DNA from: a virus
Reading direction: 5' to 3' (one strand)
Length of the DNA stretch: 64,000 nucleotides
Virus record (IMG/VR): IMGVR_UViG_3300045988_119787
Location: 1 to 64,000 of that record
Shown one piece after another: positions 4,850 to 30,484 of this stretch; position 1 is the first letter of the stretch; each line of letters opens with the position of its first letter. The position numbers were made by a program, and so were the translations under genes. The notes beneath the pieces are model-generated. The model searched no databases, was not told the origin of the DNA, and saw nothing but the letters and a program-made list of their open reading frames with translations.

Positions 4850-4990
4850 AAAACCATGAAATCTACGAAAAACCCACAAAATCGGCTCTAATCTGCTTGG
4901 AAATGGCGCTAAAGTGGCTCAAAACTTGCGAATTTGAGAGAAATCCCGACCATTTGCCCGAAAATCGCAAAAATCAGCGAAAATGAAAGA
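4850..4990. other. 10-bp-phased A-tract region (predicted intrinsically bent DNA)
   Basis: A3-A5 tracts start at 4868, 4878, 4901, 4911, 4921, 4931, 4941, 4961, 4970 and 4980. Confidence 0.65.
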
Positions 4991-5326
4991 GGTTCGTGCT
5001 TGTTCGTGTCAGACAAACATCAAAATAGCCTAAAATCGAAATGTTAAACTTTACTATGCGCACGTGCGTACCTATTAATGCAAACAGACTTTTGTACCTA
5101 AAATCACACCTTCATCAAAATTTATAATTATCTTTATACTAAAGTTTTGTTTCTCCTTGGGAACAGTTGAGACTAAAATCTTTATTATCAAGCTATTAGC
5201 GTTTTTGACTATTTGGCAGTTTATATTACAAAATAAGGCTTCTTGAAGGGGTTGAGGTAAACGGGAAAGCGGTTTATTGCGCCCCGACTAACAAATTTGT
5301 GGGTTTTGGCGAAAACTCGGTGTAGA

Positions 5327-5367
5327 TTGGAATACCGCAAAACGTACCCCCAAATATTATATATTTG
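5327..5367 (+). promoter_or_regulatory. Late promoter copy 1: TTGGAATACCGCAAAA element plus -7 box TATATTTG
   Basis: TTGGAATACCGCAAAACGTACCCCCAAATATTATATATTTG. The element-to-box offset is 33 nt, identical to the other three copies. Confidence 0.65.
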
Positions 5368-5394
5368 CCCTCGAAAACTCAAATAATTGCAATT

Positions 5395-9037: not shown

Positions 9038-12000
9038 ATGGCTGGAGATAAATTTGACCAACTTTATAACGCCTTGAAAGCTGATGGCGCAGTATCGGGA
9101 ACTAGAGAACATTTCAGACAGTTCGTATATGCGCCGGGCAAGCAGGGCTATCATAACAGAAAGCAGCTCTATGATGCGCTTCATGCTGATGGTGCTGTTT
9201 CCAGTAATTCCTATGAGGAGTTTGCGCAGCGGCTTGGACTCCATGCTGTAAATCCGAAGCCTCAGCAGAAGCCAATAGAGCAGCAGAAGCCAATGACTAC
9301 TTCGCAGAGGGCACAGAAGGTGGCAGCTCAGTATAAGCAGCAGAGGCAGCAGCCTCAGAGACCTCAGCAGCCTAGTACGGCTACTGCTTCTGGTACAGAC
9401 TATATGAAGAACTGGCAGTTGATGCACATGCGCAACTACCAGATGAACCCGATGCAGCAGGCTCAGGCTAGCAATATGCGCACGCGCATGCAAGGAGCAC
9501 AGGAACAGGCTGCGCGTCAGGAGCAGCAGAGAGCTACCCCTATCAGTAGAAGCAGAATAACCTCTACTGCCAAGAACTTCAACGAGACGATGCAGCAGCT
9601 TTCTACTCCTGAAGCTCGCAGGGCTAGAGCCAAGCAGCAGCGAGAGGACGATGCAAGAGCATTCGCCCAGTATGAGGTTGAGGGTAATAATTTTGCCCAG
9701 AATGACGGTAAATATGGCACCATTGCACCAGAGATTGACTCTCTTGTAGCTCCTTCGATGGAGGAGGCTGATAATTTGTCTTGGTCTCAGTATCAGCAGG
9801 CTTTGAAGAATGCTGGTAATGATGCCTATCTGAGAAACAAGGCGTGGAAGGATTTGCAGGACAACAGGATCAAGAACCGTCAGAATGTACTTGCCGACAC
9901 CCTCAGTTCTAAGTTGCAGGAAATATACTCCCAGAAGGGATTGCAGGAGCATATCTTGCAGAGTGCCGAAAAGTTGAATATGGGCGTGGAGGAGTACGTT
10001 GACAAGTATGTTACTCCTCAGATGATGCAGCGTGCCCAGAATATACTGGGTGTTAAGAATATTGAGGAGATTCTGCCTCAGAGTGCCACAGAATATGTGG
10101 TGAGAAGACTCAGCGATTCCATCTTGGGAACCTTGTCTGCCGGACAGGATAAGTCGAGAGAGCAGATTGCCAGAGAGCAGGAGGCGATGGCTATTGCAGA
10201 CGGTTTGGAGGAAATGCCTACCGTTAATGGCTACAAGGCTAACGAAGGTTACAAGTCTGGCATGGGCGCACGTTTCGTTTCTACGGCGGCTAACATGGCG
10301 ATGGACTCCCCTATTCTCGGAATGACAGGCAGCGCATCCAATTTGACCGTGGATCTGGGAAAGCAGGTCCTGATGAAAGGTCTCGCCAAGGCTGGAGTTG
10401 TGAAGATGGGAGCCAAGCTTACTGCACAGCAGTTGGCATTCAAGGCTGCAAACATGACGATGGCACAGAAGATTGCTTCTGGCTTGGTGGATGGAACGGC
10501 GAAGAGTGCGCTCAATCTGGGCGGTTACTCCAGTATCACCGCAGCCCTAGGGCAGGCATCCACCGGTGATGATACTTCATTGTCGGCATTGGGTCAGGCG
10601 GCATTGGGAGGATTCGAGCATGGTGCTACCACTGGTGCGATGTTCGGAGTATCGGGTGCTATCATGGCTCCTTGGGTGTCAAAGTTCGGTATCACTGGCT
10701 TGGAGAAGAGCACAGGCGAGAAATGGCTGCATGGCACACAGAAACTTGGTGCTACCGCCGCAGGTCTCGGCGTTGAGGCTGGGACCATGATGGTTGCCGA
10801 CAATATCACTGGCGATAAGGACATTTCCTTTGGCACATGGCTTGAAGACGTGGTGATGGTGGGCGCATTCAAGGCAGGAGAGCCTAAGAATTACGCTCAT
10901 ATCGGAAATGCGTTGTATAATCTTACTCATAATAGCGGTGGTAATTTCGTGATTGGAAAGAATACCAACGGCTCCCCTATCGCCGTGGATATTCGTCTGA
11001 CTCCTGACGAGAAGAATGAATTGATTTCTTCTGCATCGGGCAAGAATCTGATGGATGCTTTCGTGAAGGTGGACCGTGCATCGAAGACAGCTCCAAGAGA
11101 TTCGAAATACAAAACGGCATACACGGATTTTATGAACGACCCAGACGTTTCTCAGAGCACCAAAGAGAAGGTGAATGCGGCCATGGGACTGTTTAACACG
11201 ACAAGAGGTAAAAGCTACCGCAGCGTAAATGACGTGAAGAACAAACAGATTCTTGAATACACCAAGAACGGAACGCTGCTTACACGTACCTCTTATAAGA
11301 ATGCCGATGAACGCCGTGCTATCCTTTACAAGCAGAAGCTTTATCGTGACAATGACGATATGATGTCGCTGATTGGCTATTCCAAGATGAAGGATATGCA
11401 GCTGACTGATGAGGACGGAAATGTTACCAGTCTGGCACTTGGCTTCCTCCGTAATAACGGCTATGACACAAGCAAGGATGTTACAGACCCGATAAACGCC
11501 CAGCTGATTAATGACTTGCGCAACCCGAAGAGTGCGCTCTATCTTGACTGGGAGAAGTATGTGGACGTTTACGGTTCGTATGGCGATCTTAAAGTAGAAT
11601 CCGCAGACGTTGTTGGTGGTTTTATGGACACCTTGAAGAAGATGATCAACGACAAGGGAAACATGACGGTTGATATTGACAACATCATGCGCAAAGACCC
11701 GATGAAGCGCACCGACCAGGAGAACAAAATCTTCTATTATGTGAAGAAAGCACTCGAAGATGAGCTTTTCCCTAGCTGGAGGCCACACGCAGACCAGTCT
11801 GCCAGCCAAGGTAAGACGGTTGCCGAGGAGCATAGTCTGGGAACGGACGACCCGGATAGCGGCGTGGTAGTTGATGAGTTGCGCAACCTTCGCAATGCCG
11901 AGCAAGCCCTTGATGCAGCGATGGATAGCAACGATGTGTTCAAGCAAACCTTTGAGAAATTGCACCAGCAGGGCTTGACACCGGCACAGATTTACGATGC

Positions 12001-15000
12001 ACTCATTCAGAATGGATTGACCCAAGAAGAGTTAACCCCACTTGCCCAATATATCAATGCGAACGCTAGAGTGCAGGGTATGCAGCAGGCTACTGCTGAT
12101 GTCATAGAGGAAAACGTGAAGAGCTTTATTTCTGATTGGAGCTATCACGGAACATTGAACGGTCAGGCGATGAATGGCGAGCAAGCTTTGTACGTGCAAG
12201 ACAGCAACGGAAGAACACTTCTTGTTGGTTCAGGTGATGTTGCCTTCGACCAGACTACAGGTAGAGCCAAGGAAGGTAGCGGTGATATGCTTGTCTGCTT
12301 CGACCCTAACACCAGGGAAATGGTCTATGTGAAGGCAGATGAGGTTACTCTGTTTCAGAATCAGCCTATCGACCAGTTCGCTGCAGAATATCGTCAGAGA
12401 TTGCAGATGAAGAACTCTGAGCCTTATAATCAGGCGGCACAGGAACAGGCGATGCAGGATGCTGCAAAGCCTCAGCAGGAGCAGGAGGCACCACAAGATA
12501 ATACCACAAAATCGGAAGATAATACCACAAAAGAGGGTGATTTAACAAAAGATGATACCACTTTAACAAAAGTTAATACCACATCGGGCAAAGATAATAC
12601 CACAAATGAGAACTTAGCACCACAAGAGCAGCCTCAACCTAGCAGAAAGTTTGCCGATGGTTCAGATGTTCCTATGGCTACGGACAGCAAGGGAAGACCT
12701 ACACCTGACTATGAGAAAATGACTCCTGAACAGAGTGCAGAGATTCTTACTGAGGACTTCGGGGATAATGCCGAGAAGGTGGTGGACGGACAGATTCAGA
12801 AAGCAGAGAAGGCTTTGAAGGATGCCGAGAAGATGAAGGTGGACTATACCGCCGAACCTAACGACATCATGGAGCAGGAGACTTTGAAGAACCAGACTAT
12901 TGAAGCTGCCAAGAAGCAGTTGGATCACGCTCAGAATATCAAGAAGGCTATGACTGCCAAGAAGGTTGCAGAGACTGTTGGTAAGACAGAACAGACTGAG
13001 GGCGCACATGAAGCTGGTAGCGTGGCTGCACAGAAGTTTGTAAATGCACCTAGGCTTATAGGCAATAAGCGCACAAGAATGCTGCCTGACGGAGAGACCA
13101 AGATTAAGGGACACTATGAGATTGTTCCGGCTGAAAGTCTTACTCCTTCTCACGATGTGAACAATGGTTACAAGAAATCTGAGGGATTCCCTACCGATGC
13201 TGAGGGCAGAACTGTGAATGATCGTGACTATGAACACGACAAGGCTGCTCAGCAGAATACGGACCAGATTGCCAGGAAGTATAACGGTATGGCTATCGAG
13301 CAGGTGCCAGTGGTATCTGACGAGGGTATCGTATATGATGGCAACGGTAGAACGATGGCAGGACAGAAGGCGGCAAAGGAAGGCACAGACGCTGAATACA
13401 TCAACGACCTCTTGGAGAATGCCGAAAACTTCGGCTTCACAAGAGAACAGATTGAACAAAGCGGTATCGAGCATCCACGTCTGGTAATGGTTACGGATGA
13501 GAGATTGCCATACGATGCGGCTACCTTCGCCAAGTTCAACCGAAACGAGAAGAAGACACAGAGCAATACCGAACAGGCGGTAGCCAAGGCTAAGACCTTG
13601 ACTTCTGACGAGGTAGGCGCGATTGTTGCCGAGATTGAGGGAAATGGTTCTCTTGATGCATTCTTTAACAATTCCAAGGCAATAAATGACTTGGTAAAGA
13701 CGTTAGTAGATAAAGGAATCATCGGACAGAACGAGGTGGCACAAATGATGGATAGCCCTGAGCGCCTTTCAGCACAAGGCAGGGAGTACGTGAAGAACCT
13801 TCTTTTGGGTTCAATCTTCAAGCCAGAGACTATCAGAATGCTGGGCATCGACTCTACGGTGAAGAATAAGGCTATCAACGCTATCCGCTCGGTGATGGAC
13901 AACATGAAGCTGGGCGAGTTCTCTCTTCGTGATGAGATTGATCAGGCTATCCAATTGCTCTATGAGGCAAGACGGGGTGGCAACAAGGTTGATACGCTGC
14001 TGAGGACACCATCCATGTTCGGTGAGGATGCAGCTAAGCGTTACTCTTCTATCTCTCAGATGATGGCTTTGGCCCTAGAAGGTAAGGTATCTGATTTCAG
14101 AGATTTGCTTGACGAGTACAACCGTATTGCTGCAGCAAGAAATACTGGCGAGGGCGATGTATTCGGCGAAGCACCTACCAAACCAGAGTTGATAAAAGAA
14201 TTTATGGACTTTAAAAAATGGCAAGATTATGGAACAGGACATTCAGAAAATGAAAGAGGCAATGATGTTTCAGGCATTGAAGAACCTCAACAAGAAGCAT
14301 CAGGAGGAAATGAACCAGCAGAAGCAGAGCGACCAAGAGTAGAAGAACCAGAAGTAGGTTCTCTCCCACTCCTTCCAAAGGAAGAGAACCCAGACCCTCA
14401 GTTTAACCCGATTGAGGCAGCTGCAGCAGAGTTCAAGAAGGAGCATCCTTTAACCGAGGAAGAGATTATGAAGGCAGACGTGGACGATTTATCCAAGGAT
14501 ATGGCGCTTGACTATCAGAACGGAGAAGTGACAGACGATTTGCACCGTGCTATCTACGAAAGCATCTATGCTAAACGCAAGGGATTGAAGGCTGAACCAA
14601 AGGTTGAGACTCCTAAATCTGAACCATCAGCTGACCCAATGGAAGCTTTCAAGAATGCTGCAGAAGGGTTCGAGAAGGAGAAGAAGGGTAAAGCAGAACA
14701 GCCAAAGAAGCCTCAGCAGACTGCTGACGATGCAGCAGTAGCGGCTTCTAACAAGAAGGTTAATGACCTTTGGGATATGCTCAAGAATGCCGGCAAGGAT
14801 GAAATGTCTGCTTCGTTTGTTGGTCTTAACTCTAGACAGCTGGAAGTATTGCCTAAGCTGGTGAGCGCCATGGCAGAGAATGCTTATCTGAGAATCAAGA
14901 GAGGTATGCACAATCTTGAAGACGTGGTGAAGGAAATGCGCAAGGAGTTTGCTCCTGCTTCCAAGATTTTCAAGAAGGAAGACGTGGATGCTATCTATGA

Positions 15001-18000: not shown

Positions 18001-21000
18001 TGAAGACTTGGGCGAAGAGGCTGTTAAGGCTTATCACGAACTGGAAAAGAAGATTGAGCAGACAAGTACCGGTCTTTCACTCTCCCCTATAGATGTTATC
18101 AAGAACGAGCTGCAGAAGGCAGGTTATAAGGTTGGCGAGCTGACAGGAAGACAGACCGAGTTTGTTTATAACGACAACGGAACAGTTACCAAGGTAAAGC
18201 GTGCTGATACCGACAAGAAGAAACTCGCACGCGACTTTAACGATGGTAAGATTGATGCGCTTATCCTCAACAAGAGTGCTGCAACCGGTATTTCCCTTCA
18301 TGCTTCGAGCAAGTATAAGGACCAGAAGAAGCGTGTGATGATCGTGGCGCAGCAGCAGCTTGACGTGAATGACGAGGTTCAGATGCGTGGACGTATCGAC
18401 CGAACCGGTCAGGTGGCTAGAGGTGCATACGAGTATGTGGTTTCCCTTATCCCTGCCGAGCAGCGACTGCTGATGATGTTTAAGGCTAAGTTGAAGTCAC
18501 TTGATGCCAACACGACTTCTTCTCAGAAGAGTAAGTTCAACGAAATGGAAGTTGCCGATATTACCAATAAATATGGTGACAAGGTGGTTAAGGAATACAT
18601 GGCAGAGCATCTTGACCTTTATGCACGCATGGCTGATCCATTCGGATGGGAAAAGACTTACGGTGATGATTTGAGTAGAATCAACCCACAAAACCTTGTT
18701 GTCAGTGGTGGAGGTGTCGGTGATGGTGAAGCTGGTGCCGATGCAAGCAAGTTGCTTGGACGTATGGCTTTGCTGAGAGTAAACGAGCAGGAGAAGATGT
18801 TGCAGGAGATTGGCGAGCTTTACGCCAACGAGATTCAGCGACTCAACGAAATGGGCGAGAACGATTTGGAGATTACCGAGCTGCCACTGAAGGCTAAGAC
18901 TATCCACAAGGAAGTATGGAAGCAGGGCGCTGAGCCGGGCGGCGATAACGCCTTTGCCGACAACACCTATATAGAAAAGGTGAACATGGCTATCTTGAAG
19001 AAACCGATGAAGGCTTCTGAGGTGAAAGCTTCGCAGGAAGGCTTGACTGGCGGCAAGACTTGGGATGAATACAAAACCGAAAAGAAGACTGCCGTGAAGG
19101 AATACTTCGGCCAGAAGATTGCGAACGAGACTCAGAGGTATGAGGAGCGTGCGGTGAAGGCTGCAACCAAGGCAAAAGAGAAGTATATCAAGGATGGAAA
19201 GAAGGGTCAGGAGAAATCGGGCATGACCGATGAGCAGATAGAAAAGAATGCTGAATATCAGTACGAGACTATCTACAAGCAGGAGAAGGATAAGCTGGAT
19301 GATGTAGTGAAGAACTTGAAGGAGAAGGCAGAAATGTTTGACCGTGTTCTTGACACCTTCGACACCAACCAGACTTTCGTTCTGCCTACGGACATGAACA
19401 ATCCTAACGAGTTGAGCGGATTCGGCAACAGCTACGGTAGACTGATTGACATCAAGATTACTGATAACTTCTCGCCTAACGCCTCTTCTGTTTCCTTTGC
19501 AACCTTGGATGGCAGAAGAAAGATTACCTTCCCTATCGCTGGCAAGGTTGGTGCAGGTGAAAACAAGGCAGACATTATCGGCGCCATCGACAACATGACT
19601 AAGCAGGCAATCGGTATGGGAGACAGCCATCTCAGAGTATTGAACCAAAACTTTGATAACTGGGATAGACTGACTAGCAATGAGAGCCGCAAGAATGGCT
19701 ATATCGTGACCGGTAATCTGATGCAGGCTTTGGTTGACAGTAAAGATCAGGGCTTGGGCGGTCAGTTGGTGAAATATACTACTGATACTGGCGAGGTGAA
19801 GACTGGTATCTTGATGCCAGACAGATTCGACCCTAAGGGCTTGACAACGGATGCGCCTATCAACAGCGTGACAGAGAAGTTTGAGCTTTCATCATGGCAT
19901 GGTGGTATTGACGAGGTTACTTCATCGGATGGTGAAGTAAAGGTGAAGCGCATAGACAACAATCGTGGCTACTTCTACGAGCTTCGTGTACCGAAGAGCA
20001 AGGCGAAGGGCGGCAAGTACTTCATGGATGAAGATTTGCTGAAACTGGTTAATGGCAATAACTTCGAGACCAGAGGCAACAATATGCTTGCTGAGTTTAA
20101 GCCAGAGCAGTTGAAGCCAGTACTGGACCGCCTGTCTAAAATGGGCGTGAAGGTGCAGGAGGAGCGCAAAACTTCTGAGGATGAAGGCACCCACTTCCGT
20201 GAGGACCGAGGCTTGCAGTATTCTAAAACAGATACAAAAGATGTTAAGAAAGGTAGAATCATTCCCGAAGATGTAGATAAAAATGTATCTTCGCAGATTG
20301 AAAAGAAGTTTGATTCTACCATTAAGGACATCGAAGAGCATACAGAAGACAGAGATAAATCTTTGTTTGCTGATAATCTTGAATCTGCTCTGGATGAGTT
20401 TTCTGATCTTGGTAGAAGCGTTATTGAATATTACAAGAATGATTATGAACGAAAAGTTGAAAAGTTATCAGGACAGCATACCGGAGGACATCTTGGTGGT
20501 AAGAATGACGGTAAGGGAAATAAAGGCTCTTATCTACTGCAATATTATAAGACCGTTCTCGCCGTCGCTGACAGAGAACTTGCCTATAGAGACGCTAGAG
20601 CAAAGAATCTCAGAGAGACTTGGGGATTGCAGCCAGGAGGAGCGTTCACACTTGGAGCCGTTGAACGAATTTTTAAAGAAACAAATAGAGATAAAGGAAA
20701 GGCTGAACTCTTCCAAAGAGTTCTCGATATAAACAAGCGTCTTGGTGTAAACATCAAGGTAAGTGCCGAGAGTCCGAAGAAGAGATCTGGAGAAGCAGAC
20801 ACCAATAGAAACATTGATTTGTATATTGATGGTCTGACAAAAACAATGGCTCCAGACTACGCTGCCCCTACTATTATGCTGCATGAAATGATTCATGAGG
20901 TAACAATGGGTGCTATCAATCTCGTTAAGAAAGGTAAGGCTGAGGGCATACTGACCCCTAAGCAGATAGAGGGCGTAAAGACTATCCTCAAAATCTATGA

Positions 21001-24000
21001 CAAGGTAAAGGACGATAAGGAACGCTTCAAAGAAGAGCCTTACGGTCTGACTGATGCTTACGAGTTGACTGCTCAGATGGCAGATTCTAGACAGAGAAAG
21101 GCGATGGACTTGTCTATCTGGGATAGAGTTATGAATGCAGCACACGAATTTGCAAGAAGGGGCGATCGCTCTATCTTGCAGAGAGTGAAGGATGCCATCA
21201 AGAAACTGTTTGAGGTTTCTGACAAGGATAAGATGGATAAGGCTATCAACGACATCATGGATGATTTCAATGAAACCATTGATGATATTTCCATGAATGA
21301 GATTGAACAGGATGGATTCGCCTACAAGGTTACAGACAAGGATGAGCTGGACCGCCTCAACAAGGAAAAGACTTTCAGAATGTATAGCGGAATGCAGGAG
21401 GTGGACGGAAAGTTGTACTCCCCTATGGCTGCGATCATTGACGGAAAGCGTACCGATGCTACCGAGATTGGCGCTTGGATGGGCGCAGACGAGCGACCTG
21501 ACCTTGTGAAGAACGGAAAGTTTACACTTGTGAAGACTGATAAGAATAAGGGTGTTGGCGAGGGTGATGTGCCTGCTGCCTACAATCCTTATATGCACAC
21601 CTCCACTTCTATGATGAACGACCAGTTTACCGGTGCTTACGCTAGAGGCAACATCAAGGTTGTGGAATGGGAGATTCCTGAAAGCGAGAAGACCAGTGGC
21701 TATCGTGCTGAGGGTGCAAAGGATGCTGTGGGTCTTGTACCTTGGCATTCGGGTTCGGTTAATAGTTTGCTGCCGAAGGACAGACAGAGACAGGTGATGT
21801 TGTCACGCTGGAGAAAGGCGGTGAGAGTGGTTCCTGATTCAGAGGTGGCTGAGAGTATCGCAGAACAGTTGAAGGGTACAGGCTTGGCTATCCCTTGGAA
21901 TGTGGTTACTCCTAATCAGGTTAGGGAGTTGGCTAAGCTGGGCGTACCTATCACTACCGTTGAATCGGGAAGACAGGCTCCTGAAACCAAGGAGAAGTTC
22001 TTGCAGCAGATGGCTGAACTGGAACAGGAGTTCCCTCAAGCTAAGTTCGTTAACGTGAAAATGTCAAAGGATGCCTTCAAGGTATGGGGCAAGGACGGAG
22101 GCACCAAGTTCCGCACGGACCATGGAGAAAGTAGCTACCCTACTTCATCGGTTGAGAGCCATGTGGAGAAGGTGGCTCAGAAGACTGGCGCAAAGGTGAA
22201 CATGGTTTCATCAGTTGATGAAATCACCAACAAGGCTGCTAAGGCTGCTATTGAGGAAGGTAGAAAGATTACTGGCTGGTATGACGAGAAGACTGGCGAG
22301 GTACATCTTTATATGCCTAATATCCATGACAGATATACTGCCGAGAAGACTATCTGGCATGAGGTGGTTGGTCACAAGGGAATGAGAGAGTTGTTTGGTG
22401 AAGACCGATTCAACCAGTTCCTTCGTGATGTTTGGTACGACTTGGATAAGCCTGAGAATGCCGAATTGAAGAAGCTGGTGGATGAGGAGAGAAGATACAA
22501 TCCTCTGAATATCTATGATGCCATAGAGGAAGGTATCGCCCGACTCGCCGAGGATGGCAAGGGTGAACCGGGCTTCTGGAATGGTATCAAAAACAAGGTA
22601 TCTGATTTCCTTCATGAAATCGGTTATCGTATTGCTCCTAATACTAAAGATGTGAAGTATCTGCTCTGGTTGAGCAAGAACTTGCAGAAAAATCCGAATG
22701 ACCCTTATTGGAAGCTGAGAGCCGAGGCGGTGAAATTCCGTCTCGACCATGATCGTGTGCCTGCTGTCGTGGCGCATGATGGTATGTTCTACGGAAATGA
22801 CGGTAAGGTCCGCAGTATGGAGAGCATGACCAAGAGCGAATGGAACGAGGCTACAGACGGACAGATTCACTTCCGTACTACCCCATCTGCCGGCACAGCA
22901 CTTGACAGATACCACCGTTCGCTGGATGAGCACGGCTATATGTTCACCGAGAGCTATATGGATAATATGCTTTCGTTGAAGAAGTTGATGAATGCGATTG
23001 TGCCAGATAAGAAGATTGAGGATATTGCTTCTTCGGAGAATCCTTATATACTGCAGAACACCATGCAGGGTGCGATGAGTGATGCGGCTCAGATGTTTGA
23101 GCGCAACGTAATGAAGCCGCTTGACAAGGCGATGGCTGGTGTGCTGGATGCCTTTGATGGCAAGAAGGATGATGAGAAGATTAGAAACTTCAATCTCTAC
23201 ATGATTACCAAGCATGGTTTGGAGCGAAACAGAGTGTTCTTTGTTCGTGACTTCCTTAGACAGATGAGAATGTACGAGAAGAAGAAGCAGGATGCAGACA
23301 TCTTGGAGAACCGCTGGAGTAACGAGAAGGAACGTCTGGATAACGAACTGAATGCTGGTAACATCGACCTGAAGGAGTACTACAGACAGATAGACGAGTT
23401 TATCAACAACGAAATCGACCCAGACTATAAGGCTGGCGAACACGACTATTCGGGTATTCACGCTATACAAGAGGTAGCAAAGTCTTCTGACCCATACGAT
23501 GATGCAGAGGCTATCGCTAGCGTGATGGATTCGGAAGCTAAGATGGAGAGCATCAAGAAGGGAGCTGTGAAGGACTATTGGGATAAGGTGAAGGCTGCAA
23601 CCCAGTATTCGATTGACAGCGACTACAAGAATGGTATCATCAGCAAGGAGTTGCACGGTCATGTATCTAATATGTTCAACTGGTATGTGCCTTTGAGAAA
23701 GTATGATGAGGCTACTGCAGAAGATACTTATGGCTACATTACTGAGCAGGGAGACCCGAAGAGTTACATCGGAAGCACCATCATGAGAGCAAGAGGACAC
23801 AAATATCTGAGTGAGACAAATGTGCTGGCGCAGATTGGTGCGATGGGTAACAGAGCTATCAAGAACGGCGGTATGAATGCTATCCGTCAGGCTTTCGCAA
23901 GATTCGCGCGAAATAATTCGGGCAATAATCTGATTACAGAAACGAGTGTATGGTATGAGAAGGACCCAATGACCGGTATTGTTTATGAGCGCTATCCTGA

Positions 24001-26107
24001 TATTCCTGAGGACGCTACACCAGACGAAATCAACCAGATAGTTGCAGACTTCAATACAGACATGAAGGCAAAGGCTGCACAGGGCTTGGCATCGAAGGTT
24101 TACCGCAGGGGCAGTATCGGCTATAAGTTCCAAAGAGCTGAGAATAAATCACAGCATATCGTAGACGTGAAGATTGCCGGCAAGACTCATTCTTTTGTTA
24201 TCAACGGAAATCCCAGAGCAGCGCAGGCATTGAATGGGTTGCTGGAGAACTCTAGCGCCAAGGGATTCATGAAACCTTTGAGCACTATTTCTAGAATGAT
24301 GGCACAGCTCTGTACTTCATACAACCCTGAGTTCGTGATGAGAAACGCCTTCCGTGATGCTGAGTTTGCTTCGAGCAACGTTACATCGAAGGAAGGTGCA
24401 AGATACGGGGCACTCTGGGCTAAGTACTACGCACAGCTGGGTCTGTATAAGGGCGCATCGAATATCAGCTTGAAGGATTTCAGCGGTTCTACGGGTTTGG
24501 GATTGTTCGCAAAGTATCGTAACGGCACACTTGATATTTCTGACAAGGTTCAGAGATACTTCAAGGAGTTCATGGAGAACGGCGGTGAGACTGGTTGGGT
24601 TCAGATCAAGAACATGAAGGATTGGACCAAGGAATACAAGAAAGACGTGAAGGACGAAAGAAGCAAGCTGAACAAGGGCGGTGAACTGGTACGTGATTTC
24701 TTCTTCGGTAACTTGGAGAACGTGAATGAGGTGGCAGAGAATATCGCCCGATTCACTACTTACTGTACGAGTCGTGATTATGGACGTTCCGTTATCCGCT
24801 CTGTCTATGATGCCAAGGAAGTATCTACCAACTTCAACCGTCATGGTAGCGGTGATGCCGTCAAGAGTTTCAAGAACGGTGAAATGACTGGAACCAAGGC
24901 TGCAAGAAGATGGGCATACGGATTTACTTCCGGCTATCTCAGACACTGCTCTATGTTCTTCAACGCTGGTATTCAGAGTACGAACCTTCTTGCGAAGAAC
25001 TTGAAGAATCATCCTGTAGGAACTTCCATCAACATGCTTGCCATTCCTTTTGCACTCGGTGCGCTGGCTGCACTTGGAAACAATGTGCTGATTGCGAGTG
25101 AGGACGAAAAGGACAGAAAGGGAGTGAAGGACCCATACGGTGAACTGCCTGACTACGTGAGAAGGAACAATCTCTGTATCTACAAGGGAGGCGGTCAGTT
25201 TATCACGATTCCGCTTGCCATCGAGTTAAGAGCTTTCTATGGCTTGGGTGACTTGGCTGCAGGCTTGACCTTCTCGCCAAACGTGAGCGGACAGAAGAAT
25301 CCTTACTTAGATGCCGTGGGCTGTATGTCGCAGCTGGTTCCTGTGATGGACTATCTCGGTAACTCTTCGGCAGGCAAAGAACCGATTAACGAGACCATCA
25401 AGGCTATCTCTCCTTCTGCCCTATCTCCATTCGTTGAATGGGAGTTAAATACCGACTGGAAGGGTGCGCCTATTGAGAGACGTGGCGACTGGAACGAAAA
25501 TTCCCCTGCTTGGCAGAGAGCCTACAAGGGTATTCCTGACGGTTATATGGCTGTAAACAAATGGGTGAATGCCCAGACAAACGATGTAGCCAAGGGTAAC
25601 GAGGATATGCTGGGTAATAGTTTCCTGGATATGGTAACGAACCCTAGTATGCTGAATCATTACATCGGCGGTCTTGGCGGTGGTGCTGCTACCTTTACTG
25701 AGCGTGCTATTGGTGTTGTGAAGCATGGAAATGATACGGAAACCAAGGATATTCCTTTCCTTCGCTCCCTACTCTATACGCCTAGCGAGCAAAGCAGCTT
25801 GCAGAGAACCAAGAGCAAGTGGTATAACTACAAGGACGAAATGGAAAAGACCATGGCAAATGTGGACCGTCTGAAATCCAAGAACGTTCCGATTGATAAG
25901 AGAATCACGAATATTGGGGAATATTATCACTTCCAAAACTCCAAGGAAGCTGCCAAGGTGAGAGTAATCGAGCTGGCAGAGAAACAGATGAAGCGCTGGA
26001 AGAAGATGAGGGATAAGGCTAGCGATACAGAAAGCATCAACTTCGCTAATCAGAATATTGATAGGATCATGATGGATGCGGTGGACGAACTGGATAGACT
26101 GGAATAA
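9038..26107 (+). CDS. Giant polyvalent protein (5,689 aa): ParB-like + N6-adenine MTase + strawberry-notch/DarB-type SF2 helicase + two zincin-like sites + large uncharacterised C-terminal region
   Basis: A single uninterrupted 17,070-nt ORF. Motifs are listed as separate features below. A terminator follows directly. Confidence 0.9.
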   Translation: MAGDKFDQLYNALKADGAVSGTREHFRQFVYAPGKQGYHNRKQLYDALHADGAVSSNSYEEFAQRLGLHAVNPKPQQKPIEQQKPMTTSQRAQKVAAQYKQQRQQPQRPQQPSTATASGTDYMKNWQLMHMRNYQMNPMQQAQASNMRTRMQGAQEQAARQEQQRATPISRSRITSTAKNFNETMQQLSTPEARRARAKQQREDDARAFAQYEVEGNNFAQNDGKYGTIAPEIDSLVAPSMEEADNLSWSQYQQALKNAGNDAYLRNKAWKDLQDNRIKNRQNVLADTLSSKLQEIYSQKGLQEHILQSAEKLNMGVEEYVDKYVTPQMMQRAQNILGVKNIEEILPQSATEYVVRRLSDSILGTLSAGQDKSREQIAREQEAMAIADGLEEMPTVNGYKANEGYKSGMGARFVSTAANMAMDSPILGMTGSASNLTVDLGKQVLMKGLAKAGVVKMGAKLTAQQLAFKAANMTMAQKIASGLVDGTAKSALNLGGYSSITAALGQASTGDDTSLSALGQAALGGFEHGATTGAMFGVSGAIMAPWVSKFGITGLEKSTGEKWLHGTQKLGATAAGLGVEAGTMMVADNITGDKDISFGTWLEDVVMVGAFKAGEPKNYAHIGNALYNLTHNSGGNFVIGKNTNGSPIAVDIRLTPDEKNELISSASGKNLMDAFVKVDRASKTAPRDSKYKTAYTDFMNDPDVSQSTKEKVNAAMGLFNTTRGKSYRSVNDVKNKQILEYTKNGTLLTRTSYKNADERRAILYKQKLYRDNDDMMSLIGYSKMKDMQLTDEDGNVTSLALGFLRNNGYDTSKDVTDPINAQLINDLRNPKSALYLDWEKYVDVYGSYGDLKVESADVVGGFMDTLKKMINDKGNMTVDIDNIMRKDPMKRTDQENKIFYYVKKALEDELFPSWRPHADQSASQGKTVAEEHSLGTDDPDSGVVVDELRNLRNAEQALDAAMDSNDVFKQTFEKLHQQGLTPAQIYDALIQNGLTQEELTPLAQYINANARVQGMQQATADVIEENVKSFISDWSYHGTLNGQAMNGEQALYVQDSNGRTLLVGSGDVAFDQTTGRAKEGSGDMLVCFDPNTREMVYVKADEVTLFQNQPIDQFAAEYRQRLQMKNSEPYNQAAQEQAMQDAAKPQQEQEAPQDNTTKSEDNTTKEGDLTKDDTTLTKVNTTSGKDNTTNENLAPQEQPQPSRKFADGSDVPMATDSKGRPTPDYEKMTPEQSAEILTEDFGDNAEKVVDGQIQKAEKALKDAEKMKVDYTAEPNDIMEQETLKNQTIEAAKKQLDHAQNIKKAMTAKKVAETVGKTEQTEGAHEAGSVAAQKFVNAPRLIGNKRTRMLPDGETKIKGHYEIVPAESLTPSHDVNNGYKKSEGFPTDAEGRTVNDRDYEHDKAAQQNTDQIARKYNGMAIEQVPVVSDEGIVYDGNGRTMAGQKAAKEGTDAEYINDLLENAENFGFTREQIEQSGIEHPRLVMVTDERLPYDAATFAKFNRNEKKTQSNTEQAVAKAKTLTSDEVGAIVAEIEGNGSLDAFFNNSKAINDLVKTLVDKGIIGQNEVAQMMDSPERLSAQGREYVKNLLLGSIFKPETIRMLGIDSTVKNKAINAIRSVMDNMKLGEFSLRDEIDQAIQLLYEARRGGNKVDTLLRTPSMFGEDAAKRYSSISQMMALALEGKVSDFRDLLDEYNRIAAARNTGEGDVFGEAPTKPELIKEFMDFKKWQDYGTGHSENERGNDVSGIEEPQQEASGGNEPAEAERPRVEEPEVGSLPLLPKEENPDPQFNPIEAAAAEFKKEHPLTEEEIMKADVDDLSKDMALDYQNGEVTDDLHRAIYESIYAKRKGLKAEPKVETPKSEPSADPMEAFKNAAEGFEKEKKGKAEQPKKPQQTADDAAVAASNKKVNDLWDMLKNAGKDEMSASFVGLNSRQLEVLPKLVSAMAENAYLRIKRGMHNLEDVVKEMRKEFAPASKIFKKEDVDAIYEQMMNIRYRDGEQRMSLKEWADYYEKTSPKHQENLVGDSKSAEERKMAEKKFIDVVNLQLGFKHKFNGIVELRKIAERLGLKDIKDTDLQELAETAIVKRARGIASSESTNNAEKFKRIKTLYENQPSLNQRDSERVMKQQYSTPAPYAFLADMYVKGNGKVIESALEPSAGNGMLTIGLPKDKVHVNDIDDTRLLNLNRQGFGKVTSQDGTQPFNVKPVDIVITNPPFGSATPKEYDGYKISSLEGQMAINALESMKDDGRAAIIIGGKTEYAKNGSLNPKDKAFLGYLYSHYNVEDVINVDGGLYAKQGTSYPTRIILINGRRLDENAFPPVKDKARAEAVKDYDELYKRIEDDILRGERMDSSIGGETRSAQPELDKQGAAGTPKERVRAGERGGSKPDGERESDLFDSTSVSGTHDDLENQRGTEPREDGGLSGGDTGTDRTGTEPSQSEGATAGTNEQRGAGSGGAGRNDAQPSTDEPASAGSGSGPRGQLQRVDKSVRGLSTEKVTYTPKSGNPFTLKAVMPADQQEAVNKNLEKLGDADQFLVDELGYNDKDDLYSHLAAEQVDSVALALQQAKKGNAFIIGDMTGIGKGRQAASLIRYAKKQGQVPVYFTKTAGLLSDVYRDLVDIGSPELRPFVFGSAKEAAITDSDGNVVFSLPSKSEVKRVLDYIEKNGKLPEEYDYVLTTYSQVSNGVYEFDEDGNRKERKLAKGKSFGAAALSGQKRRDAIEKLMGNAYLILDESHTAGGNSGQGNYFQHIIQKAKNVTFFSATFAKRPDNMPIYALRTAMNEGGMKSSDLIDAVKRGGATLQEIMSQTLTQCGQMIRRERDMTGVTIDWKAIDDPERVKEQREQYDSIIGLFNDIINFQKKYVSSYVDERNIELADIQSTMDIKKGTESLGIKNQPFASKAFNTVQQVLLSLKAKSAAERAIDYLKQGMKPVIALNNTNESQTGNLALGEEMDAPDLGTSLKKGLEGTLRYTQKDAKDNSESGYFKLEDLGEEAVKAYHELEKKIEQTSTGLSLSPIDVIKNELQKAGYKVGELTGRQTEFVYNDNGTVTKVKRADTDKKKLARDFNDGKIDALILNKSAATGISLHASSKYKDQKKRVMIVAQQQLDVNDEVQMRGRIDRTGQVARGAYEYVVSLIPAEQRLLMMFKAKLKSLDANTTSSQKSKFNEMEVADITNKYGDKVVKEYMAEHLDLYARMADPFGWEKTYGDDLSRINPQNLVVSGGGVGDGEAGADASKLLGRMALLRVNEQEKMLQEIGELYANEIQRLNEMGENDLEITELPLKAKTIHKEVWKQGAEPGGDNAFADNTYIEKVNMAILKKPMKASEVKASQEGLTGGKTWDEYKTEKKTAVKEYFGQKIANETQRYEERAVKAATKAKEKYIKDGKKGQEKSGMTDEQIEKNAEYQYETIYKQEKDKLDDVVKNLKEKAEMFDRVLDTFDTNQTFVLPTDMNNPNELSGFGNSYGRLIDIKITDNFSPNASSVSFATLDGRRKITFPIAGKVGAGENKADIIGAIDNMTKQAIGMGDSHLRVLNQNFDNWDRLTSNESRKNGYIVTGNLMQALVDSKDQGLGGQLVKYTTDTGEVKTGILMPDRFDPKGLTTDAPINSVTEKFELSSWHGGIDEVTSSDGEVKVKRIDNNRGYFYELRVPKSKAKGGKYFMDEDLLKLVNGNNFETRGNNMLAEFKPEQLKPVLDRLSKMGVKVQEERKTSEDEGTHFREDRGLQYSKTDTKDVKKGRIIPEDVDKNVSSQIEKKFDSTIKDIEEHTEDRDKSLFADNLESALDEFSDLGRSVIEYYKNDYERKVEKLSGQHTGGHLGGKNDGKGNKGSYLLQYYKTVLAVADRELAYRDARAKNLRETWGLQPGGAFTLGAVERIFKETNRDKGKAELFQRVLDINKRLGVNIKVSAESPKKRSGEADTNRNIDLYIDGLTKTMAPDYAAPTIMLHEMIHEVTMGAINLVKKGKAEGILTPKQIEGVKTILKIYDKVKDDKERFKEEPYGLTDAYELTAQMADSRQRKAMDLSIWDRVMNAAHEFARRGDRSILQRVKDAIKKLFEVSDKDKMDKAINDIMDDFNETIDDISMNEIEQDGFAYKVTDKDELDRLNKEKTFRMYSGMQEVDGKLYSPMAAIIDGKRTDATEIGAWMGADERPDLVKNGKFTLVKTDKNKGVGEGDVPAAYNPYMHTSTSMMNDQFTGAYARGNIKVVEWEIPESEKTSGYRAEGAKDAVGLVPWHSGSVNSLLPKDRQRQVMLSRWRKAVRVVPDSEVAESIAEQLKGTGLAIPWNVVTPNQVRELAKLGVPITTVESGRQAPETKEKFLQQMAELEQEFPQAKFVNVKMSKDAFKVWGKDGGTKFRTDHGESSYPTSSVESHVEKVAQKTGAKVNMVSSVDEITNKAAKAAIEEGRKITGWYDEKTGEVHLYMPNIHDRYTAEKTIWHEVVGHKGMRELFGEDRFNQFLRDVWYDLDKPENAELKKLVDEERRYNPLNIYDAIEEGIARLAEDGKGEPGFWNGIKNKVSDFLHEIGYRIAPNTKDVKYLLWLSKNLQKNPNDPYWKLRAEAVKFRLDHDRVPAVVAHDGMFYGNDGKVRSMESMTKSEWNEATDGQIHFRTTPSAGTALDRYHRSLDEHGYMFTESYMDNMLSLKKLMNAIVPDKKIEDIASSENPYILQNTMQGAMSDAAQMFERNVMKPLDKAMAGVLDAFDGKKDDEKIRNFNLYMITKHGLERNRVFFVRDFLRQMRMYEKKKQDADILENRWSNEKERLDNELNAGNIDLKEYYRQIDEFINNEIDPDYKAGEHDYSGIHAIQEVAKSSDPYDDAEAIASVMDSEAKMESIKKGAVKDYWDKVKAATQYSIDSDYKNGIISKELHGHVSNMFNWYVPLRKYDEATAEDTYGYITEQGDPKSYIGSTIMRARGHKYLSETNVLAQIGAMGNRAIKNGGMNAIRQAFARFARNNSGNNLITETSVWYEKDPMTGIVYERYPDIPEDATPDEINQIVADFNTDMKAKAAQGLASKVYRRGSIGYKFQRAENKSQHIVDVKIAGKTHSFVINGNPRAAQALNGLLENSSAKGFMKPLSTISRMMAQLCTSYNPEFVMRNAFRDAEFASSNVTSKEGARYGALWAKYYAQLGLYKGASNISLKDFSGSTGLGLFAKYRNGTLDISDKVQRYFKEFMENGGETGWVQIKNMKDWTKEYKKDVKDERSKLNKGGELVRDFFFGNLENVNEVAENIARFTTYCTSRDYGRSVIRSVYDAKEVSTNFNRHGSGDAVKSFKNGEMTGTKAARRWAYGFTSGYLRHCSMFFNAGIQSTNLLAKNLKNHPVGTSINMLAIPFALGALAALGNNVLIASEDEKDRKGVKDPYGELPDYVRRNNLCIYKGGGQFITIPLAIELRAFYGLGDLAAGLTFSPNVSGQKNPYLDAVGCMSQLVPVMDYLGNSSAGKEPINETIKAISPSALSPFVEWELNTDWKGAPIERRGDWNENSPAWQRAYKGIPDGYMAVNKWVNAQTNDVAKGNEDMLGNSFLDMVTNPSMLNHYIGGLGGGAATFTERAIGVVKHGNDTETKDIPFLRSLLYTPSEQSSLQRTKSKWYNYKDEMEKTMANVDRLKSKNVPIDKRITNIGEYYHFQNSKEAAKVRVIELAEKQMKRWKKMRDKASDTESINFANQNIDRIMMDAVDELDRLE
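13112..13354 (+). other. ParB/sulfiredoxin-like module within the giant ORF
   Basis: HYEIVPAESLTPSHD ... VVSDEGIVYDGNGRTMAG resembles the ParB N-terminal-domain pattern, with the DGNGRT box at 13337-13354. Confidence 0.5.
15500..15685 (+). other. N6-adenine DNA methyltransferase core motifs within the giant ORF
   Basis: Motif I LEPSAGNG (15500-15520) and motif IV NPPF (15674-15685), 58 aa apart as in gamma-class enzymes such as M.TaqI. Confidence 0.8.
16763..18412 (+). other. SF2 helicase (strawberry-notch-like) core within the giant ORF
   Basis: GDMTGIGKGRQ (16763-16795), LILDESH (DESH at 17234-17245), FFSATF, LILNKSAATGISLH, QMRGRIDRTGQ (18380-18412). Confidence 0.8.
20882..20899 (+). other. 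HExxH zincin motif (HEMIHE) within the giant ORF
   Basis: Context APTIMLHEMIHEVTMGAIN. Confidence 0.55.
22358..22375 (+). other. HExxGH zincin-like motif (HEVVGH) within the giant ORF
   Basis: Context AEKTIWHEVVGHKGMRELFG. The spacing is that of M49/DPP-III-type sites, not canonical HExxH. Confidence 0.4.
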
Positions 26108-26117
26108 TATAAAAAAG

Positions 26118-26146
26118 GGAGTGGGCTTAGTGCTCACTCCTTCTTT
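26118..26146 (+). terminator. Rho-independent terminator after the giant ORF; a second perfect 8-bp hairpin lies at 26149-26167
   Basis: GGAGTGGGC-ttagt-GCTCACTCC followed by TTCTTT, then CTCAGCAT-aga-ATGCTGAG. Lies between convergent operons. Confidence 0.65.
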
Positions 26147-30475: not shown

Positions 30476-30484
30476 TAGATAGTT

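Follow-up and report, generated by a model that had tools for sequence, protein, structure and literature searches.

A 5,689-residue polyvalent protein with apparently conserved ends and an exchangeable middle in a temperate phage of Segatella

One open reading frame (ORF) fills a quarter of the 64-kb window, by which we mean the whole stretch of viral DNA that was analyzed. A frame of this size raises the questions of whether it is a genuine, intact gene, to which known proteins its product is related, and what such a product may contribute to infection. A first-pass annotation had read it as a packaged multienzyme protein of the polyvalent class that acts as a one-gene counterdefense system.

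The giant ORF is a single, intact gene

The giant ORF (positions 9038 to 26107, plus strand) starts with ATG and encodes a protein of 5,689 aa (634 kDa, pI 5.7). The frame of 17,070 nt described earlier is present at exactly these coordinates, with no internal stops across 17 kb; the probability of 5,689 random sense codons in a row is ~1e-119. All of the motifs named before (leader repeats, ParB, methyltransferase, helicase, and both zincin sites) were found in the translation. The database entries of close relatives are fragments of ~2,000 aa or shorter, as might be expected if the ORF were an artifact, whether genes fused by misassembly, a pseudogene in decay, or an annotation error. We traced these short fragments to scaffold gaps and contig ends, and the “split” genes of a 95%-identical scaffold are due to runs of 10 N. 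Furthermore, the homologue P0091 (5,932 aa) is intact and collinear with the giant ORF at 73 to 82% identity over aa 1191 to 5689, a 61%-identical relative has a single ORF of 4,821 aa, and unbroken ORFs of 4,821 to 6,927 aa were seen repeatedly in independent assemblies and isolated phages. Together with 17 kb free of stops, these intact relatives make an artifact extremely improbable.

The giant gene lies in the virion region of a short-tailed prophage

Three low-complexity proteins had been noted upstream of the giant ORF, and we found counterparts for two of them. Upstream partner gene 1 (5365 to 6087, plus strand), recognized by synteny, encodes a small protein that is rich in Ala and Gln and has a hydrophobic segment at its N terminus; its counterparts lie directly upstream of the giant gene in the phages BKO1-TP3 (gp57; E = 8e-22), BF1-TP2 (gp70), and BS-TP4 (gp1). 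The ATG at 5395 is its likely start, as a Bacteroidota-type −7 box (TAtaTTTG at 5360 to 5367) overlaps the listed TTG. Upstream partner gene 2 (7684 to 9021, plus strand), also recognized by synteny, encodes a low-complexity protein of 445 aa that is 48% identical to the product of the 484-aa ORF preceding the giant gene in L001 and weakly matches BF1-TP2 gp69. The first 13 nt of this gene lie within the preceding ORF, and 16 nt separate its end from the start of the giant ORF. The preceding ORF itself (6650 to 7696, plus strand; Glu/Lys-rich, 348 aa) had no counterpart among the phages compared. The promoter sequence previously placed at 5327 had no further copies in the window at up to three mismatches. 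Past the stop codon of the giant ORF, direct folding revealed an 11-bp hairpin (26116 to 26142; −18.7 kcal/mol, z = −4.5) preceded by an A-run and followed by UUCUUUG; this hairpin is terminator-like on both strands and was not flagged by a consensus terminator scan. A direct-repeat scan returned only low-complexity coding repeats, and no tRNA genes were found in the window.

The window also encodes an integrase, a terminase-like protein, a GH19-type glycoside hydrolase domain, and RecT, as well as a portal resembling that of P22 and an adaptor resembling that of SU10. The portal and adaptor denote a short-tailed prophage, for which a tape measure is therefore not expected, explaining the lack of a tape-measure gene remarked upon earlier. 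Close relatives were found in Segatella genomes, and the host phage is a temperate short-tailed phage of this gut bacterium. A 15-kb minus-strand block lies between the giant gene and the portal block, whereas in BKO1-TP3 and BS-TP4 the giant gene adjoins the portal gene; in all relatives examined, the giant gene is grouped with virion genes. We considered an origin from a conjugative element and rejected it, the context being wholly phage and the domains restricted to the phage type. A nucleotide search of positions 1 to 25000 of the window against phage records gave no match.

Domain architecture of the giant protein

All of the domains described here are encoded on the plus strand. The protein begins with a tandem leader motif, LY[ND]AL.ADGA ... 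F (aa 8 to 21 and 43 to 56; 9038 to 9247), that reads QLYNALKADGA at aa 8 and QLYDALHADGA at aa 43. In 33 of the 107 long relatives, a leader-related motif lay within the N-terminal 90 aa, as against 0.5% of interior windows. Beyond the leader, composition (per 200 aa) delimits a Gln/Ala/Arg-rich low-complexity region (aa 70 to 400; 9245 to 10237), which had no match in Pfam and PHROG scans, and composition and hydropathy delimit a Gly/Ala/Thr-rich region (aa 400 to 640; 10235 to 10957), which is common to just 11 of 147 relatives. The latter had been described as a Gly/Ala-rich hydrophobic segment; its composition agrees, but it is only mildly hydrophobic, and no hydropathy window in it reaches a transmembrane-like level. 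The ParB-like module proposed before is supported by Pfam and is of the DdrB type (PF18763, aa 1354 to 1481, 13097 to 13480; E = 5.7e-11, 43 bits against a cutoff of 27.6), with its DGxxR motif present as DGNGR at aa 1434.

The next block carries an N6-adenine methyltransferase resembling type I HsdM/EcoKI (15305 to 16087). Its motifs QQYSTP (aa 2127), EPSAGNG (aa 2155), and NPPF (aa 2213) are invariant columns in our alignment (A6), and the region weakly matches the Pfam families MTS and UPF0020. In searches of the PDB with the profile of A6, the top matches were type I restriction-modification methyltransferase subunits (E = 0.0023 for the best, up to 0.06). Motifs and profile searches thus support the methyltransferase assignment, the PDB matches being marginal. 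A linker rich in Gly, Ser, Glu, and Arg, seen in sequence and composition (aa 2360 to 2500; 16115 to 16537), separates it from a strawberry-notch-type SF2 ATPase/helicase (16691 to 18877), whose domains start ~200 aa C-terminal to the methyltransferase. The helicase assignment is upheld by two Pfam families that each exceed their cutoffs (AAA_34, E = 4.5e-15; Helicase_C_4, E = 1.5e-25) and by the P-loop GIGKG (aa 2580), DESH (aa 2733), and QMRGRIDR (aa 3115); a single-sequence search of the PDB with the helicase tile alone returned nothing at E ≤ 1. The giant ORF therefore does contain the methyltransferase-helicase pair of the DarB kind that had been reported.

Two zincin-like sites follow. 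Zincin-like domain 1 (20675 to 21217) has HEMIH at aa 3949 and an invariant Glu downstream, and HEMxH is invariant across 10 homologues of 25 to 64% identity, 7 of which gave weak hits to the SprT-like family of Pfam, the best at E = 8.7e-5. This domain aligned with aa 381 to 465 of the PhiM1 ejection protein gp48 with an hhalign probability of 78%, and its profile matched PhiM1 gp48 in the PDB at E = 0.093. The HExxH zincin claimed earlier is thus backed by its motif and by weak, consistent profiles, but not by a fold match. The second site, which had been given as HExxGH, has HExxxH spacing: this HExxxH domain (22175 to 22747), defined by motif conservation only, carries GWYD at aa 4413 and HEVVGH at aa 4441, and its motif and downstream Glu residues are invariant in the corresponding alignment (A4). 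It was present in 97 of the 107 long relatives, and its profile found nothing meaningful in Pfam or the PDB. Foldseek searches of the PDB with a model spanning both sites (aa 3880 to 4640) gave nothing significant (best E = 0.34), and the profiles of the two sites matched each other with an hhalign probability of 5%. Between them, alignment revealed a mobile module (aa 4080 to 4340, 21275 to 22057; AAYNPYxHTS ... NDQF) that occurs in 31 of the 107 long relatives in varying contexts; its predicted structure is a block with pLDDT mostly 74 to 93, for which fold comparison with the PDB gave no match.

The HExxxH domain is the beginning of a C-terminal arm (aa 4353 to 5689, ~1,330 aa; 22094 to 26104) that is common to all relatives compared and, consisting of this domain and an all-alpha LPD38 module, is conserved more strongly than any other part of it. 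The roughly 1,500 C-terminal residues had been thought to hold no nameable motif, which proved incorrect, since Pfam identifies LPD38 there (PF18857, aa 5365 to 5575, 25130 to 25762; E = 1.3e-24, 87.8 bits against a cutoff of 27). Just ahead of LPD38 lies the sole transmembrane-like segment of the protein (aa 5327 to 5352, 25016 to 25093; 1.6 to 1.8 in a 19-aa Kyte-Doolittle window). An AlphaFold2 model of aa 4490 to 5689 (pLDDT 73, pTM 0.66) is mainly helical with few strands. Foldseek comparison of this model with the PDB found nothing significant, the best matches being membrane transporters at E ≥ 0.28, and comparison with BFVD gave 70 matches at E ≤ 0.001, mostly pieces of polyvalent proteins. 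Some of the family members in BFVD combine a lytic transglycosylase (LT_GEWL) domain and the C-terminal module in one protein; T7 gp16 likewise carries a lytic transglycosylase domain.

Taken tile by tile, the domains proposed earlier are supported clearly for ParB and the helicase, marginally for the methyltransferase, and by motifs and weak profiles for the zincins, whose tiles gave no significant fold match. A single-sequence PDB search with aa 1 to 5000 yielded nothing at E ≤ 0.01, and an NCBIfam scan added nothing.

The giant protein belongs to a large mosaic family

All recognizable domains of the giant ORF, including the HExxxH peptidase variant, had already been described in phage-type polyvalent proteins, to which DdrB-ParB and LPD38 are restricted and in which a strawberry-notch-type helicase was found in “a few instances” (Iyer, Burroughs, Anand, de Souza, and Aravind, 2017; PMC5512222). 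Since a single ORF contains ParB, the methyltransferase, the strawberry-notch helicase, and LPD38, and since DdrB-ParB and LPD38 exceed their Pfam cutoffs, the earlier assignment to this class is correct as judged from sequence. Like the proteins described in PMC5512222, the giant ORF joins numerous unrelated enzyme domains into a polypeptide of >2,000 aa and has portal and terminase neighbors, and it shares with them DdrB-ParB, LPD38, the methyltransferase-helicase pair, and putative zincin domains including HExxxH; we found no categorical difference. Proteins of this class are predicted to be packaged and delivered alongside DNA (PMC5512222).

Among the closest known systems are Bacteroides temperate phages of the same kind and host order, in which a small and a mid-sized partner gene precede the giant gene: BKO1-TP3 (gp55, 5,553 aa, annotated as “DarB-like antirestriction”), BS-TP4 (gp3, 5,391 aa), and BF1-TP2 (gp68, 3,633 aa) (PMC12694917). 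When the text of that paper was searched for DarB and antirestriction terms, these giant proteins did not come up. All three share a homologous C-terminal arm (27 to 28% identity), and BS-TP4 also shares the methyltransferase-helicase block (40% identity), whereas the N-terminal and middle parts differ. The C-terminal module is in common with still other giant proteins, those of Bcep22 (gp75, 4,602 aa), JC1 (gp69, 4,515 aa), and phi24B (gp47, ~2,810 aa), the arm matching phi24B vb_24B_48 at E = 4e-36 and Bcep22 gp75 at E = 2e-18. These phages are also short-tailed and have the giant gene at the end of the virion operon, after mid-sized virion proteins, but they have Proteobacterial hosts and other payload domains. 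For phi24B gp47, LPD5, LPD1, and MuF-C are listed and a methyltransferase-helicase domain is unmentioned (phi24B preprint). Segments of PTXU04 gp25 with HExxxH and LPD38 are collinear with those of the giant ORF but match them weakly in sequence (E about 5e-4 per segment); in the BFVD comparison of the C-terminal model, this protein was matched at E = 3e-18.

We analyzed mosaicism with local BLASTP and phmmer, comparing the protein with six giant homologues, 147 representatives, and the close relatives. The C-terminal 1,200 aa are common to 3,800 cluster representatives; among the best 147 of these, 50 have a length of 5,000 aa or more, 19 equal or exceed the giant ORF in length, and 1 (P0091) repeats its exact domain order. 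Family matches were in phages of Bacteroidota and Proteobacteria except for one in a Methanosarcina virus, and a match to PHROG 14770 spans aa ~2070 to 5689. In 40 of the 107 long relatives, the chassis is kept with none of the payload modules of the giant ORF. As far as sequence comparison can tell, the protein has conserved ends and an exchangeable middle, the methyltransferase, helicase, and zincin part being a swappable cassette. The view that this domain combination and size match no characterized protein thus does not hold: both are usual in a family whose members number in the thousands, with annotated counterparts in isolated Bacteroides phages, and the giant ORF is one ordinary, typical representative of that large known family, striking in its size.

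Resemblance to DarB and to ejection proteins

P1 DarB (2,255 aa) likewise fuses an N6-adenine methyltransferase to an SF2 helicase, is packaged in the head, and shields incoming DNA in cis against type I restriction. It differs from the giant ORF in its phage, which has a contractile tail and a DarA/Hdf packaging pathway of its own, in being reported as accessory, and in its helicase, which in the giant ORF is of the strawberry-notch type. LPD36, which lies upstream of the methyltransferase in DarB, had no match at E ≤ 0.1 in our Pfam scan. A tblastn search with aa 2050 to 3320 against 50,697 phage records matched 3 records; because P1 was not among them at E ≤ 1e-5, we treat a DarB-like function of the methyltransferase-helicase pair as an analogy.

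The putative set of a small, a medium, and a large gene in a late operon may be comparable to that for the ejection proteins which short-tailed phages store in the capsid and release on infection (T7 gp14/15/16, P22 gp7/20/16, and PhiM1 gp50/49/48). The giant ORF differs in being four to five times larger and full of nucleic acid enzymes. PhiM1 gp48 resembles it in the alignment with zincin-like domain 1 only, and has no sequence or fold similarity to the C-terminal arm (hhalign probability of 0.1% with the C-terminal profile). Since no solved structure proved analogous to the C-terminal module, and PhiM1 gp48 shows no likeness beyond zincin-like domain 1, its proposed role as an “ejection conduit” rests on context and on a preprint proposal.

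Proposed role of the giant protein

We favor the reading, to which we assign a probability of roughly 0.7, that the giant ORF encodes a capsid-packaged, ejected polyvalent protein with conserved ends and a variable counterdefense payload. We infer packaging, ejection, the roles of the ends, the enzyme activities, and processing as follows. The giant protein would be expressed late, jointly with the small hydrophobic protein (5365 to 6087) and the 445-aa protein (7684 to 9021), then packaged within the capsid and expelled via the portal and tail together with the DNA or just ahead of it. The C-terminal ~1,330 aa (HExxxH domain, helical module, hydrophobic helix, and LPD38) may be an invariant chassis for encapsidation, envelope crossing, or both, with the N-terminal tandem leader motif as a possible second conserved handle. 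Between these ends, the payload would comprise a DdrB-type ParB nuclease/NTPase, the HsdM-like methyltransferase with the strawberry-notch helicase, the HExxH zincin, and the mobile module. The methyltransferase-helicase pair could move along the DNA as it enters, guarding it in cis against restriction, the ParB domain could work on nucleic acid after entry, and the zincins could cleave the polyprotein into working pieces.

Packaging is plausible by homology because proteins with the C-terminal module have been detected in the virions of both JC1 and phi24B after purification. JC1 gp69 was detected by 51 unique peptides in CsCl-purified virions, in which the two proteins encoded immediately upstream are also virion proteins, and phi24B gp47 is abundant in virions and missing from the cryo-EM map (phi24B preprint). 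The finding of such proteins in virions of phages from two unrelated hosts, along with the virion-gene neighborhood in all relatives examined, speaks against a late cytoplasmic multienzyme that stays unpackaged and methylates progeny DNA or remodels host DNA before lysis. The enzymes could indeed work on replicating phage DNA, and sequence does not prove encapsidation, yet we consider this alternative quite improbable. An external tail component (a fibre, a spike, or a substitute for a tape measure) would suit the great length, the Gly/Ala-rich and low-complexity stretches, and the location in the virion module. Such a role is very improbable given that phi24B gp47 is not in the resolved tail or capsid shell, that nucleic acid enzymes are on board, that the model of aa 4490 to 5689 is mainly helical with few strands, and that no tail-fibre families were matched in Pfam, PHROG, and NCBIfam scans. 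The same three scans found no polymerase family that would indicate a T7-like RNA polymerase module, as in an N4-type virion RNA polymerase.

A closer competitor holds that the protein is purely accessory cargo like DarB, injected for antidefense only and dispensable where defenses are lacking, with the arm as a packaging tag. The methyltransferase-helicase pair of the DarB archetype, the “DarB-like antirestriction” label of relatives, and the rapid turnover of cassettes, as expected under an arms race, would all accord with it. However, an invariant ~1,330 aa with a hydrophobic helix far exceeds the size of a tag, the chassis persists in the long relatives that have none of these payload modules, some members carry a lytic transglycosylase, and knockdown of PTXU04 gp25, a distant family member, strongly lowered plating on a laboratory host. 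We therefore regard the accessory-cargo alternative as unlikely. The one-gene counterdefense reading of the first-pass annotation leaves out of account that the invariant part of the protein is the C-terminal module and not the enzymes. Because this module is invariant and infection of a laboratory host depends on a distant family member, the comparison points to a possible core entry role beyond counterdefense. A wider version of the favored reading, which we advance only tentatively, is that the giant proteins may be an essential large subunit of the ejection complex in a widespread short-tailed lineage, their ends targeting the capsid, crossing the envelope, and carrying any inserted cassette.

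Implications

In the human gut, Segatella copri is a dominant species, and to our knowledge its phages have been little studied. The present locus is not exceptional within its family. If the giant proteins do prove to be essential subunits, they would represent a modular natural delivery vehicle of >600 kDa with unfolded passage through the portal. If the combination of chassis and payload is true, the storage and portal threading of a 634-kDa protein would become a concrete structural question, one also posed by the phi24B authors for a smaller homologue (phi24B preprint). The middle cassette would then be a readable record of the host defenses that these phages have met, and the conserved ends would be engineering candidates for protein delivery into gut Bacteroidota.

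A 17-kb ORF closes an operon in a prophage

The giant ORF extends from 9038 to 26107 on the plus strand, begins with ATG, and encodes a protein of 5,689 aa with a computed mass of 634 kDa and a pI of 5.7. We detected no internal stop in its translation (chance probability, ~1e-119). The gene seemingly lies in three pieces in a scaffold of 95% identity, with runs of 10 N at the breaks. A relative, L001, carries a single ORF of 4,821 aa with a C-terminal end 61% identical to that of the giant protein, and P0091, a 5,932-aa cluster representative, is collinear with it at 73-82% identity over aa 1191-5689. The N-run breaks and the intact ORFs in relatives rule out an assembly artefact as the origin of the giant ORF. 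With internal stops absent and a collinear relative in another assembly, the uninterrupted frame reported in the first-pass annotation is borne out.

The window is a prophage encoding a tyrosine integrase (289-1425), an HTH regulator (3655-3969), an SU10-adaptor-like protein (37213-37869, minus strand), a P22-like portal (41107-43125), a terminase-like protein (45437-47569), a GH19-type glycoside hydrolase domain (52803-53348), and RecT (62566-63495, minus strand). Short-tailed phages have no tape measure, so its absence from the window is expected because this phage is short-tailed. Close homologues are named Prevotella or Segatella copri, and genome matches were limited to two, one in Segatella copri and one in Candidatus Segatella violae.

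Four ORFs run in one direction here, and the giant ORF ends the series. Positions 5360-5367 carry a Bacteroidota-type -7 box (TAtaTTTG), with an in-frame ATG 28 nt further on at 5395. The promoter sequence upstream of the operon occurs once within the 64-kb window. The 445-aa ORF has a 13-nt overlap with the 348-aa ORF and stops 16 nt upstream of the giant ORF. Beyond the stop codon of the latter we observed an 11-bp hairpin (26116-26142; -18.7 kcal/mol, z = -4.5) with an A-run on one side and a U-rich run on the other. The Glu/Lys-rich 348-aa ORF (6650-7696) sits between two conserved partner genes after a 560-nt gap, and it had no counterpart among the compared phages and no family match. 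An 800-nt non-coding stretch (4570-5365) lies ahead of the operon. It is rich in G+C at about 4570-4640, contains a run rich in CA, and carries AACTAGGAAAATA twice (4710-4722 and 4732-4744); these features may be regulatory or attachment-site elements. A 31-nt stretch coding AAQYKQQ(K/R) in the 445-aa partner gene (8548-8578) is 87% identical to one in the N-terminal part of the giant gene (9323-9353), a hint that the two genes share low-complexity sequence or have undergone exchange.

Elsewhere in the window, G+C content falls to 34-35% at 30000-34800, compared with about 45-50% in flanking blocks; this block holds a 1,090-aa ORF (31549-34821, minus strand) that encodes a CotH kinase-like domain (E = 9e-15) and may be a tail or host-interaction gene of recent acquisition. 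The product of 45437-47569, a 710-aa protein, matches terminase PHROGs, and about 2.8 kb from its gene is a rhomboid-domain protein (50327-50812, minus strand). A similar small protein adjoins the terminase-like gene in three isolated Bacteroides phages (L003, 27078-27596; L004, 22426-22944; L005, 28251-28718). The rhomboid gene's neighbour is named "tail spike protein" in these records (L003, 24971-27085; L004, 20340-22436; L005, 26207-28234), and the structure-alignment notes in two of the three name terminase entries. Going by the records' own notes, this naming looks like an annotation error.

Predicted enzymatic domains of the giant protein

All motifs named in the first-pass annotation were found in the translation: QLYNALKADGA (aa 8), QLYDALHADGA (aa 43), DGNGR (aa 1434), NPPF (aa 2213), GIGKG (aa 2580), DESH (aa 2733), HEMIH (aa 3949), and HEVVGH (aa 4441), the last of which has HExxxH rather than HExxH spacing. 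Pfam domains scoring above curated cut-offs were a DdrB-like ParB domain (aa 1354-1481, E = 5.7e-11), AAA_34 (aa 2552-2847, E = 4.5e-15), the strawberry-notch C-terminal domain Helicase_C_4 (aa 3030-3280, E = 1.5e-25), and LPD38 (aa 5365-5575, E = 1.3e-24). PHROG 14770, a 3,427-position profile of unknown function, spans aa ~2070-5689.

The methyltransferase region fell under Pfam thresholds; QQYSTP (aa 2127), EPSAGNG (aa 2155), and the NPPF motif are invariant in eight homologues. The best PDB matches of its profile were type I restriction-modification methyltransferase subunits (7eew, E = 0.0023; StySJI M, 0.023; EcoKI M, 0.06). These features match the EcoKI/TaqI-like family described for polyvalent proteins (Iyer et al. 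2017, PMC5512222).

Ten homologues of 25-64% identity all retain HEMxH and a downstream Glu in zincin 1, and they gave weak Pfam matches to SprT-like (7 of 10; best E = 8.7e-5), Peptidase_M90 (4 of 10), and Aspzincin (3 of 10). The top PDB match of its profile was the tetrameric ejection protein gp48 of Pectobacterium phage PhiM1 (8vb2_A, E = 0.093), with hhalign giving 78% probability and 34% identity over 77 columns. Eleven aligned sequences of the HExxxH domain share GW.D, E..GH, and two downstream Glu, with the first His replaced by Arg in one; its profile matched nothing in Pfam or PDB. Considering the motif and the HEXXXH class of Iyer et al. 2017 (PMC5512222), we regard this site as a putative peptidase.

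Conserved arms flank an exchangeable middle

We compared the giant protein with six giant homologues. BS-TP4 gp3 (5,391 aa) shares aa 2053-3709 (40% identity) together with the C-terminal arm (aa 4353-5689), the only part common to BKO1-TP3 gp55 (5,553 aa) and BF1-TP2 gp68 (3,633 aa). The L001 ORF (4,821 aa) shares aa 285-1765 and aa 4353-5688 and is without the middle block, apart from a weak 110-aa match near the NPPF region. More distant matches covered aa 4822-5404 in Bcep22 gp75 (4,602 aa; E = 2e-18) and aa 5048-5687 in phi24B vb_24B_48 (2,807 aa; E = 4e-36). In close relatives, aa 1 to ~1800 and the stretch from aa ~4353 onwards are retained with the middle replaced, and the giant protein therefore consists of two conserved arms flanking an exchangeable cassette.

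Searched exhaustively, the final 1,200 aa matched 3,800 cluster representatives at E ≤ 1e-3 (966 at E ≤ 1e-30); in the proteins listed, the matching region is C-terminal. The best 147 have a median length of 4,162 aa and a maximum of 6,927 aa; 50 reach 5,000 aa or more and 19 reach 5,689 aa or more. Among the 107 of these 147 that reach at least 3,000 aa, the HExxxH domain occurs in 97, the ParB domain in 33, the helicase in 18, and the methyltransferase and zincin 1 in 16 each, and only P0091 combines ParB, methyltransferase, helicase, and two zincin domains. A well-folded module of unknown function at aa 4080-4340 (21275-22057), with near-invariant AAYNPYxHTS and NDQF motifs and no match in Pfam or PDB, occurs in 31 of the 107. 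In representative P0058 a PBECR3 nuclease domain follows such a module, and P0062 has a DdrB-ParB domain besides it; the module behaves as a mobile unit.

The N-terminal tandem motif is likewise a family feature, a similar pattern being present within the N-terminal 90 aa in 33 of the 107 long relatives versus 0.5% of interior windows. When N-termini of P0088-P0144 were compared, two or more alternative conserved leaders were seen: the tandem LYxALKxDG...F (9038-9247 in the window) and "YYYFKDAKGNRHTV..." in L001, P0095, P0098, and others. These may be capsid-targeting signals. Methanosarcina virus MetMV (MK170447.1, 41038-42684) matches the last 642 aa (24% identity, 98% coverage, E = 3e-18), and the C-terminal module is therefore present in a virus of archaea too.

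The AlphaFold model of aa 3880-4640 (pLDDT 64, pTM 0.36) had no significant match in PDB. That of aa 4490-5689 (pLDDT 73, pTM 0.66) is almost all helix and had no solved analogue in PDB (top E-value, 0.28), with 70 matches at E ≤ 0.001 in a viral predicted-structure library. Most were C-terminal pieces of "large polyvalent protein associated domain" proteins; others were named for a lytic transglycosylase domain, a RelA/SpoT domain, or a type I methylase.

Virion association of relatives and a proposed role

Virion association of family members has been demonstrated experimentally. In CsCl-purified JC1 virions, gp69 (4,515 aa, closest in sequence to Bcep22 gp75) yielded 51 unique peptides, outnumbered by the capsid protein alone, and gp67 and gp68, encoded directly upstream, are virion proteins as well. 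The phi24B gp47 protein (LPD5, LPD1, LPD38, and MuF-C domains) is plentiful in virions and not seen in the cryo-EM map; its authors proposed an encapsidated ejection protein. Bcep22, phi24B, and PTXU04 share the layout of the window, small and mid-sized genes followed by a giant last gene. The 240-aa partner protein has counterparts in BKO1-TP3 gp57 (E = 8e-22), BF1-TP2 gp70, and BS-TP4 gp1, and the 445-aa partner is 48% identical to a 484-aa ORF of L001.

We place the giant protein in the polyvalent class with a probability of about 0.95, and it is probably packaged in the virion. We propose that it would be synthesized late, packaged in the capsid together with its partner proteins, and released via the portal at infection. 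The C-terminal arm, and probably the N-terminal leader, would serve encapsidation and envelope crossing, with the cassette bringing in enzymes that would work on incoming DNA and on the host. The zincins may process the polyprotein, and the methyltransferase-helicase pair may shield DNA in cis in the way reported of P1 DarB (Iyer et al. 2017, PMC5512222).

Direct involvement in the entry path is a tentative suggestion, at somewhat less than even odds, and the leading alternative is that the protein is DarB-like cargo of purely accessory function. Knock-down of PTXU04 gp25, a putative polyvalent protein of 2,198 aa, strongly lowered plating; its HExxxH and LPD38 segments are collinear with those of the giant protein at a weak sequence match, and it matches the aa 4490-5689 model structurally (E = 3e-18). 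P1 DarB itself has no BLAST-level homology to the giant protein, which may be DarB-like in its working and is not itself a DarB.

The first-pass annotation could not map the protein to any characterised one, a view countered by Iyer et al. 2017 (PMC5512222), where all its recognisable domains and their combination logic already appear, and by annotated counterparts of similar size in isolated Bacteroides phages. The methyltransferase plus strawberry-notch block is rare among deposited phages (3 of 50,697 records). Of interest are the division into a conserved chassis and an exchangeable payload, the conserved leader, the C-terminal arm with its unsolved fold, and the question of how a 634-kDa protein is physically stored and ejected, all of them properties of the whole family rather than of this locus.
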